526 nt of DNA, from the sequence record EF517084.1; one strand, 5' to 3'. This document shows positions 1 to 526 of this stretch, piece after piece. Numbering within the stretch: the stretch's first letter is position 1; every line of letters starts with the position of its first letter. Position numbers and translations under genes: made by a program. The notes beneath the pieces are model-generated. The model was not told the DNA's origin, ran no database searches, and saw only the letters and a program-made list of their open reading frames with translations. This DNA is from a phage.

Positions 1-1
1 G

Positions 2-238
2 GAAGGGACTCGTCCGGTTAAACAGGTTGCTGGCGGTCTAGCTGGTTTGGCTAGTGGTACTGGTGAAGCACAGATGGTGGTAGTACCACAAGCTGCCGCA
101 CAGATTGTTGACGTACCTGAGAAAGAGGTTTCCACTGAGGACGAAGCACAGACAGAAAGCGGACACAAAAAAGCTCGTGCTGGCGGTAAGAAATTCTTGA
201 GTGTAACCCGTAGCTCCGGTGACGGTATCAACATTTAA
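2..238 (+). CDS. 7.3: 3' end of a gp7.3-like virion/tail-associated protein gene of a T7-like phage (5' end lies upstream of the window)
   Basis: Frame 2 is open from position 2 with no upstream stop, ending at TAA 236-238. Translation: EGTRPVKQVAGGLAGLASGTGEAQMVVVPQAAAQIVDVPEKEVSTEDEAQTESGHKKARAGGKKFLSVTRSSGDGINI. The ORF-track start at 47 is a TTG inside this frame, so the reported 63-aa ORF is a truncation artefact. The sequence closely resembles the C-terminus of T7 gp7.3 as I remember it (not checked), and it sits directly upstream of an HNH endonuclease gene as in T7. Confidence 0.8.
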   Translation, partial: EGTRPVKQVAGGLAGLASGTGEAQMVVVPQAAAQIVDVPEKEVSTEDEAQTESGHKKARAGGKKFLSVTRSSGDGINI

Positions 239-240
239 TC

Positions 241-246
241 AGGAGG
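241..246 (+). promoter_or_regulatory. Shine-Dalgarno ribosome-binding site (AGGAGG) for the downstream HNH endonuclease gene
   Basis: Perfect AGGAGG at 241-246, followed by a 5-nt spacer (ttatc) and GTG at 252. It lies 2 nt after the TAA stop of the upstream gene. Confidence 0.65.
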
Positions 247-251
247 TTATC

Positions 252-526
252 GTGGAAAACTGCATTGAATGGACCGGAAGTGTCAACTCTAAGGGTTATG
301 GTCGTAAGTGAATTAATGATAAACTTGTGACTCCACATAGGCATATCTATGAGGAAACATATGGTCCAGTTCCAACAAGAATTGTGGTGATGCATATCTG
401 CGATAACCCTAGGTGCTATAACATAAAGCACCTTACGCTTGGAACTCCAAAGGATAATTTCGAGGACATGGTTACCAAAGGTAGACAGGCTAAAAGAGAG
501 GAACTAAGCAAGAAACTTACAGAGTC
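252..526 (+). pseudogene. 7.7: HNH homing endonuclease gene (T7 gp7.7-like), interrupted by an in-frame TGA at 309-311; 3' end beyond the window
   Basis: GTG 252 with SD. Translation: VENCIEWTGSVNSKGYGRK*, then the same frame stays open to the window end: INDKLVTPHRHIYEETYGPVPTRIVVMHICDNPRCYNIKHLTLGTPKDNFEDMVTKGRQAKREELSKKLTE. The GYGR motif upstream of the stop and the HRH...HICDNPRCYNIKHL...DN core downstream are typical of phage HNH_3-type endonucleases. The single stop falls between two conserved blocks, with no frameshift. Not in the ORF track because the frame is split by the stop and runs off the window. Confidence 0.7.

Follow-up and report, generated by a model that had tools for sequence, protein, structure and literature searches.

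The 526-nucleotide stretch of phage DNA analysed here, which we call the window, resembles bacteriophage T7 but carries numerous base changes, and it raises the question of where these changes came from. A sequence-only reading, made from a remembered T7 sequence, had claimed that nearly all of the differences are G:C>A:T transitions. We aligned the window to 50,697 phage records using megablast, and all 526 bases matched positions 19597-20122 of the T7 genome (NC_001604) without gaps and with 96.4% identity. The identical T7 sequence occupies positions 19598-20123 of AY264774. After T7, the nearest natural relatives are the Yersinia phages YpsP-G and phiA1122, which are 91-94% identical to the window. 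Gene content and order are T7-like and colinear, with gp7.3 (PF11653) followed by gp7.7 (HNH_3). Pfam places the former in the T7 virion assembly protein family and identifies an HNH_3 domain at residues 29-70 of the latter, and an Rfam scan of both strands of the window gave no match. The window is a piece of phage T7, probably of a laboratory derivative, and contains parts of genes 7.3 and 7.7, arranged as follows.

1 to 238, plus strand: gene 7.3, T7 virion/tail assembly protein (PF11653), codons 22-99 and the TAA stop; 9 substitutions, of which 7 are missense and 2 silent.
239 to 251, plus strand: 7.3-7.7 spacer of 13 bases, with the Shine-Dalgarno sequence AGGAGG for gene 7.7 at 241-246; no substitution.
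252 to 526, plus strand: gene 7.7, HNH endonuclease (PF13392), GTG start, codons 1-92; 10 substitutions, of which 7 are missense, 1 nonsense and 2 silent.

A base-by-base comparison with T7 identified 14 G>A, 4 C>T and 1 A>T, which makes 19 differences in all. Thus, 18 of the 19 (95%) are G:C>A:T. No A:T>G:C change was seen, against about 0.6 expected, and the 526-base alignment contains no indels or other error types. The individual substitutions are listed here.

Position 8, plus strand: G>A, gene 7.3 A24T; the sole change found commonly in nature, as a G/A polymorphism.
Position 47, plus strand: C>T, gene 7.3 L37L, silent.
Position 53, plus strand: G>A, gene 7.3 G39S.
Position 81, plus strand: A>T, gene 7.3 E48V; the sole transversion, in a codon also changed in laboratory isolate K (E48K).
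Position 165, plus strand: G>A, gene 7.3 R76H.
Position 169, plus strand: G>A, gene 7.3 K77K, silent.
Position 195, plus strand: C>T, gene 7.3 S86F.
Position 206, plus strand: G>A, gene 7.3 A90T.
Position 222, plus strand: G>A, gene 7.3 G95D, in a codon also changed in isolate K (G95S).
Position 258, plus strand: G>A, gene 7.7 D3N.
Position 279, plus strand: G>A, gene 7.7 G10S.
Position 311, plus strand: G>A, gene 7.7 W20*; codon 309 to 311 goes from TGG to TGA, a premature stop.
Position 312, plus strand: G>A, gene 7.7 V21I; together with 311 an adjacent GG>AA, each G being preceded by G.
Position 319, plus strand: G>A, gene 7.7 G23D.
Position 344, plus strand: C>T, gene 7.7 H31H, silent.
Position 356, plus strand: G>A, gene 7.7 E35E, silent.
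Position 378, plus strand: G>A, gene 7.7 G43R.
Position 460, plus strand: C>T, gene 7.7 S70F.
Position 495, plus strand: G>A, gene 7.7 G82R.

The alignment therefore bears out the claim of a near-exclusive G:C>A:T spectrum, which had been based on 17 of the 19 differences. All ten sites that the sequence-only reading named in gene 7.7 (258, 279, 311, 312, 319, 344, 356, 378, 460 and 495) were right in position, base and coding effect. Its account of gene 7.3 needed some repair: sites 8, 53, 81, 195, 206 and 222 stand, the site given as 164 is really 165, and the silent changes C>T at 47 and G>A at 169 had been missed. The glutamate-to-valine change at 81, about which it was unsure, is present as an A>T substitution (E48V). 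We rejected the GG>AA tandem at 311-312 as a meaningful signal, as an adjacent mutated pair arises by chance in 44% of simulations at the same density.

One explanation for these differences is the natural divergence of a wild T7-like phage. In its favor, A24T at site 8 is a natural polymorphism, and two distant relatives carry the A alleles of sites 258 and 356. We gathered 24 natural relatives from phage records, IMG/VR and metagenomes and found that the window base is absent from all of them at 16 of the 19 sites, indicating that the window has the derived state. Every relative keeps the T7 base at the eight gene 7.3 sites that run from 47 to 222, even those that are only 82-87% identical to T7. 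Additionally, natural T7-group phages show a mixed spectrum in this same stretch. T7 and YpsP-G differ at 22 positions, of which 16 are transitions, running either way, and the other 6 transversions, and the comparison of T7 with phiA1122 is similarly mixed. Natural divergence should also be mostly silent, whereas 15 of the 19 changes alter a protein, and six of the seven gp7.3 changes (G39S, E48V, R76H, S86F, A90T and G95D) fall at residues conserved in 98-100% of the 118 homologues compared. T7 itself remains the closest relative in the collections searched. The mixed natural spectrum, the derived alleles and the changed invariant residues refute natural divergence, to which we assign practically no probability, and they uphold the earlier view that this spectrum is unlike that of natural divergence.

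The window alleles were equally absent from wider collections. Exact k-mers across the mutated sites had no match in viral, metagenome or genome contigs, and megablast searches of plasmids and of E. coli genomes found no sequence with the window alleles. An exact-protein look-up of the gp7.3 fragment gave no match, protein-guided locus searches recovered wild-type T7 and more distant relatives only, and none of the proteins found in a database search with the gp7.3 fragment, nor their cluster members, carries the window residues. Nor did the gp7.7 fragment yield any candidate in a protein search. The sequence-only reading had named a mixed spectrum, or a natural phage already carrying these bases, as evidence that would speak against it; the aligned spectrum is 18 of 19 G:C>A:T, and none of the phages and public contigs searched carries the bases. 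The haplotype is new to the collections searched, and the kind of object it represents has already been published and deposited.

The coding effects of the substitutions show how little selection has shaped the fragment. The G:C>A:T changes comprise 13 missense, 4 silent and 1 stop, compared to 174, 68 and 10 possible changes of each type. This split matches the neutral expectation and shows that purifying selection is absent. Because W20* lies upstream of the HNH_3 domain, the reading frame predicts that this copy of gene 7.7 is likely a null allele. Gene 7.7 is presumably dispensable to T7.

Two laboratory isolates of T7, K and P, provide a reference spectrum. Both were reportedly treated with nitrosoguanidine by Bull and colleagues. 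The relevant accessions form a run, AY264774 (T7+), AY264775 (K), AY264776 (K115), AY264777 (P) and AY264778 (P82), and we compared K and P over their whole genomes with the parent AY264774. From the adjacent accession numbers, we take all five to come from Bull, Badgett, Rokyta and Molineux (2003, J Mol Evol 57:241). The T7+ used in that study has been identified as AY264774 (PMC2680503), and another paper cites the work as fixing random mutations by extreme bottlenecks (PMC4811365).

Genome-wide, K has 417 substitutions (1.07%) and P has 307 (0.79%), and G:C>A:T makes up 93% in each, with G>A:C>T ratios of 196:191 in K and 127:159 in P. The mutated G follows a purine in 80% of cases in K and 84% in P, compared to a background of 51%. 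Missense or stop changes account for 54% (K) and 52% (P) of the G:C>A:T changes; both values are below the 66% expected, pointing to mild purifying selection in the two lineages. K and P contain four nonsense changes, all of them W>stop, in genes 4.7, 5.7, 5.9 and 0.4, which we take to be dispensable in T7.

The window does not descend from either isolate. Over this stretch the substitution counts are 9 for K, 10 for K115 and 3 each for P and P82, and none is shared with the window, so we rejected descent from K or P and conclude that the window represents an independent lineage. Isolate K (AY264775) is less similar to the window than wild-type T7 is. Five other records of laboratory-evolved T7 have one or two changes in the stretch, again with none in common.

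The window is also denser in mutations, with changes at 3.6% of its bases and 7.0% of its G:C sites. Its 19 substitutions outnumber those in the densest 526-base stretches of K (13), K115 (15) and P (10). Over the same stretch, the window has about six times as many substitutions as P, a significant difference (19 versus 3, p=0.0009), and about twice as many as K, which is not significant (19 versus 9, p=0.087). The densest 526 bases of K115 start at 19451, overlapping the region of the window, and K115 gp7.3 has 7 amino-acid changes in its 99 residues in a propagated phage. In K, 7 of the 8 coding changes in the stretch are missense. The stretch thus appears to be tolerant of mutation. Scaling from K very roughly suggests a load of about 900 substitutions in the source genome, which may lie anywhere from K-like to several times K. 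A local or biological origin of the excess would, if true, be far more interesting; nothing points to it.

The distribution of the changes between the strands bears on several explanations. The sequence-only reading had described the changes as mostly G>A when read on the coding strand, a bias that did not survive correction for composition. The stretch contains 156 G and 102 C, of which 14 (9%) and 4 (4%) are changed, and given these numbers the 14:4 ratio is not significant (Fisher p=0.14; binomial p=0.10-0.15). Over many rounds, a methylating agent would be expected to affect the two strands about equally, and the corresponding counts are 196:191 in K and 127:159 in P. The four C>T changes, at 47, 195, 344 and 460, are interspersed among the 14 G>A changes. 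Because a single treatment gives daughter molecules changes from one parental strand only, the presence of both kinds on one molecule implies lesions on both strands and either several rounds or recombination.

This distribution also limits the possibility that the haplotype is not biological and reflects a read or assembly of damaged or deaminated DNA, a partly converted methylation read or an in-silico alteration. The window is short, its coding changes look unselected and the collections searched contain no matching sequence, all of which would suit such an origin. A conversion read should show near-complete change of C, and on a single strand. In the window the changed sites are few and lie on both strands, which excludes conversion sequencing, and we rejected a bisulfite or enzymatic conversion artefact accordingly. 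The absence of indels and other error types also speaks against a non-biological origin. Furthermore, neither random damage nor a simple simulation would be expected to reproduce the sequence context that the window shares with K and P, as described below. We consider a non-biological haplotype improbable.

The mutated sites share a sequence context. A purine precedes 15 of the 18 mutated G, compared to 145 of the 258 sites available in the stretch (p=0.024 and an odds ratio of 4.2, in a small sample of n=18). In pyrimidine notation, the 18 sites include 7 NpCpC and 8 NpCpT. Other motifs were not enriched among these 18 sites, including TC (6/63 versus 12/195, p=0.40), CC (p=1.0), YC (p=0.47), WRC (p=0.79) and CpG (p=0.49), nor was the UV motif enriched among them. 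We then calculated mutation rates by 5' base from K and P combined (A 2.4%, G 3.3%, C 0.9%, T 0.5%) and used them to predict the profile of the window.

5' A: 6.9 expected from the K and P rates, 8 observed.
5' G: 8.5 expected, 7 observed.
5' C: 1.3 expected, 1 observed.
5' T: 1.3 expected, 2 observed.

The K and P model gives the window's context profile 13 times the likelihood of a uniform model, a modest ratio drawn from 18 informative sites. An alkylating agent, hydroxylamine and a cytidine deaminase had all been put forward for these changes from the sequence alone; the 5'-purine bias (15 of 18, p=0.024) and the 13-fold likelihood ratio favor the alkylating agent, and the deaminase is left without positive support. 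We conclude that the window is probably from a laboratory T7 derivative that carries the signature of mutagenesis by a methylating agent such as nitrosoguanidine.

Another chemical specific for G:C>A:T, namely hydroxylamine, ethyl methanesulfonate, nitrous acid or bisulfite, would explain the spectrum equally well, whether free phage or a cloned fragment was treated. The high local density and the lack of any sign of selection suit treatment of a fragment in vitro. Hydroxylamine is the foremost candidate in this group. Single-strand bisulfite treatment is expected to affect one strand only, whereas the window has G>A and C>T changes intermingled. The 5'-purine bias agrees with isolates K and P, and to our knowledge no such bias has been described for hydroxylamine or ethyl methanesulfonate. 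Hydroxylamine has been used on T7 and gave mostly G:C>A:T (PMC6042481). Overall, we regard a chemical of this group as an unlikely source of the changes.

If a methylating agent was responsible, the changes would have arisen in a few steps. An SN1 methylating agent would form O6-methylguanine, preferentially at a G with a purine on its 5' side. During replication, the polymerase would insert T opposite the lesion, and the G:C>A:T change would be fixed at the next round of replication. Lesions on both strands would contribute, through several rounds of mutagenesis and replication or through recombination between genomes. Weak selection would then allow missense changes at invariant gp7.3 residues and a nonsense change in gene 7.7 to become fixed. 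The unselected missense and nonsense changes would imply that the phage went through bottlenecks or was complemented, or else that the molecule escaped selection altogether. Published data are consistent with the chemical steps: later work from the laboratory that produced the 2003 study states that treatment of T7 with nitrosoguanidine or hydroxylamine gives predominantly G:C>A:T (PMC6042481), and O6-methylguanine formed by temozolomide leads to C>T at NpCpC and NpCpT, the SBS11 signature (PMC12556801). [quoted passage not shown]

Enzymatic editing of cytosines could also produce a spectrum of this type, whether by an engineered deaminase (a polymerase fusion or a base editor) or by one encoded by the host as a defence or toxin. 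Save for one A>T, the window contains only outcomes expected of C>U deamination. The context does not fit: none of the TC, CC, YC or WRC motifs is enriched (p=0.40 to 1.0), and the enriched feature is instead a pyrimidine 3' of the C. We know of no deaminase for which a 3'-pyrimidine preference has been described. The changes also lack strand coordination, with the four C>T dispersed among G>A. Fusions of a deaminase with RNA polymerase act mainly on the non-template strand and should yield C>T on the plus strand, whereas G>A predominates here. Engineered T7-based hypermutators do exist (PMC13236587, PMC9437889). The published LySE hypermutator, which joins a deaminase to T7 DNA polymerase, gives about 30% transversions and both directions of transition, A:T>G:C included, and we rejected it as the source on account of this spectrum. 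Deaminase editing has no positive support, and the odds of it are slim.

Imbalance of the nucleotide pool offers a further route, in which T is misinserted opposite G, for example when a host dCTP deaminase defence depletes dCTP. We grade dCTP-pool depletion as speculative. Such an imbalance would presumably give G:C>A:T only, and a defence of this kind acts on T7 (bioRxiv 10.1101/2021.04.26.441389). We found no report of hypermutated survivors, a divergence of 3.6% would need many cycles, and the 5'-purine context and the match to K and P would be left without a reason. It is highly improbable that a pool imbalance caused these changes. Little more can be said for the broader idea of hypermutation in vivo, whether through a DNA cytosine deaminase of bacterial origin or through dCTP depletion by a defence that leaves heavily mutated survivors, which we consider very improbable. 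A deaminase without a 5' motif and with a 3'-pyrimidine preference would still be compatible with the evidence. If true, hypermutation in vivo would be a phage counterpart of APOBEC hypermutation of retroviruses.

Mutagenesis by a methylating agent thus remains our preferred explanation, and it affects how the fragment should be classified. Its correct place is with laboratory T7 bearing the footprint of a mutagen; it should be taken neither for a novel variant of the phage, nor for a natural HNH gene turned pseudogene, nor for an unfamiliar editing system. As an independent lineage, it shows that gp7.3 can tolerate, or at least build up, many substitutions at positions otherwise invariant in natural phages, and codons 48 and 95 are among those changed again. 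It also illustrates that as few as 18 substitutions over 526 bases can suffice to attribute a class of mutagen, given a matched reference spectrum such as that of K and P.

Comparison with known systems places the window most closely beside other mutagenized T7. It shares G:C>A:T substitutions with APOBEC/AID-type hypermutation and with deaminase-polymerase mutators, but differs from both in having neither a deaminase motif nor strand-coordinated clusters. SN1 methylating agents (MNNG, MNU and temozolomide; COSMIC SBS11) leave a signature of C>T at NpCpC and NpCpT; read on the other strand, this is G>A following a purine, as in the window. With 18 of 19 changes being G:C>A:T, the window also exceeds the share of about 90% taken as a mark of this signature. 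SBS11 was defined in eukaryotic cells and in vitro, while the window offers 18 sites of a phage fragment. T7 from lethal-mutagenesis experiments, grown in nitrosoguanidine or treated with hydroxylamine, is the same phage with the same dominance of G:C>A:T (Springman et al. 2010; Bull et al. 2013; both as cited in PMC6042481 and PMC8923235). In those studies each round reportedly added some 4 to 8 mutations to a genome (PMC6042481), whereas the window is a haplotype at 3.6% divergence.

The mutation-loaded isolates K, K115, P and P82 are the closest match. Gene 7.7 is intact in K and P and truncated in the window, and K has a G>A at 242 in the 7.3-7.7 spacer that the window does not. In other respects they agree: all derive from a common parent sequence, G:C>A:T accounts for 93% of changes in K and P and 95% in the window, and the mutated G follows a purine in 80-84% of cases in the isolates and 83% in the window. 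Nonsense changes are of the W>stop type in each, and both K and the window have missense changes at conserved gp7.3 residues, including codons 48 and 95.

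Two codons of gene 7.3, codons 48 and 95 (window 79-81 and 220-222), are altered both in the window and in isolate K (L002, AY264775), a mutation-loaded laboratory T7. Isolate K carries E48K and G95S, which are both of its gp7.3 changes within the window (2/2), and the window carries E48V and G95D, the former arising from its sole transversion. By a rough, post hoc estimate, the chance of this coincidence is (9/78)x(8/77), or about 0.012. GG hotspots may account for it, as may selection acting on the two invariant residues during laboratory propagation.

The related isolate K115 (L003, AY264776) has its densest 526-base stretch genome-wide, with 15 substitutions, at 19451-19976 of the parental T7+ sequence, overlapping the window region. 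Its gp7.3 (protein P0001) contains seven amino-acid changes. Because two of these, K3M and K28T, are transversions acquired after isolate K, they suggest compensatory evolution in K115 gp7.3.

Variants of gp7.3 also occur in other T7 lineages. An in-frame four-codon deletion (KKVV, gene 7.3 codons 17-20) is common to two independent laboratory lineages; it lies just upstream of the window, leaves a gp7.3 of 95 residues, and may have arisen by recurrent slippage between repeated KKV motifs. The proteins with this deletion are:

P0121: UJQ71080 and others
P0124: AAP34153, from isolate P82

Another T7 gp7.3 variant, protein P0126, comes from a 1184-base contig of a Logan assembly and bears G23E and D58N. 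Both changes are of the G>A type, and the source may be another mutagenised T7 sequencing run. A contig of 39820 bases in a metagenome assembly (L028, ERZ807347 NODE-48) matches wild-type T7 at every base of the window; its presence there is probably due to laboratory T7 that was added as a spike-in or carried in as a contaminant.

Turning to gene 7.7, a large protein search with gp7.7 residues 21-91 (window 312-524) returned zero candidates. Pfam detected the HNH_3 domain in this same fragment, which shares long identical runs with wild-type T7 gp7.7. Missing entries in the search index, rather than biology, seem to explain the empty result.

In isolate K, a G>A change at window 242 falls within the AGGAGG ribosome-binding site (Shine-Dalgarno) of gene 7.7, and the gene has five missense changes besides. 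The window, in contrast, retains an unchanged AGGAGG and its gene 7.7 is cut at codon 20. The HNH endonuclease was probably lost by two distinct routes, one in isolate K and another in the window.
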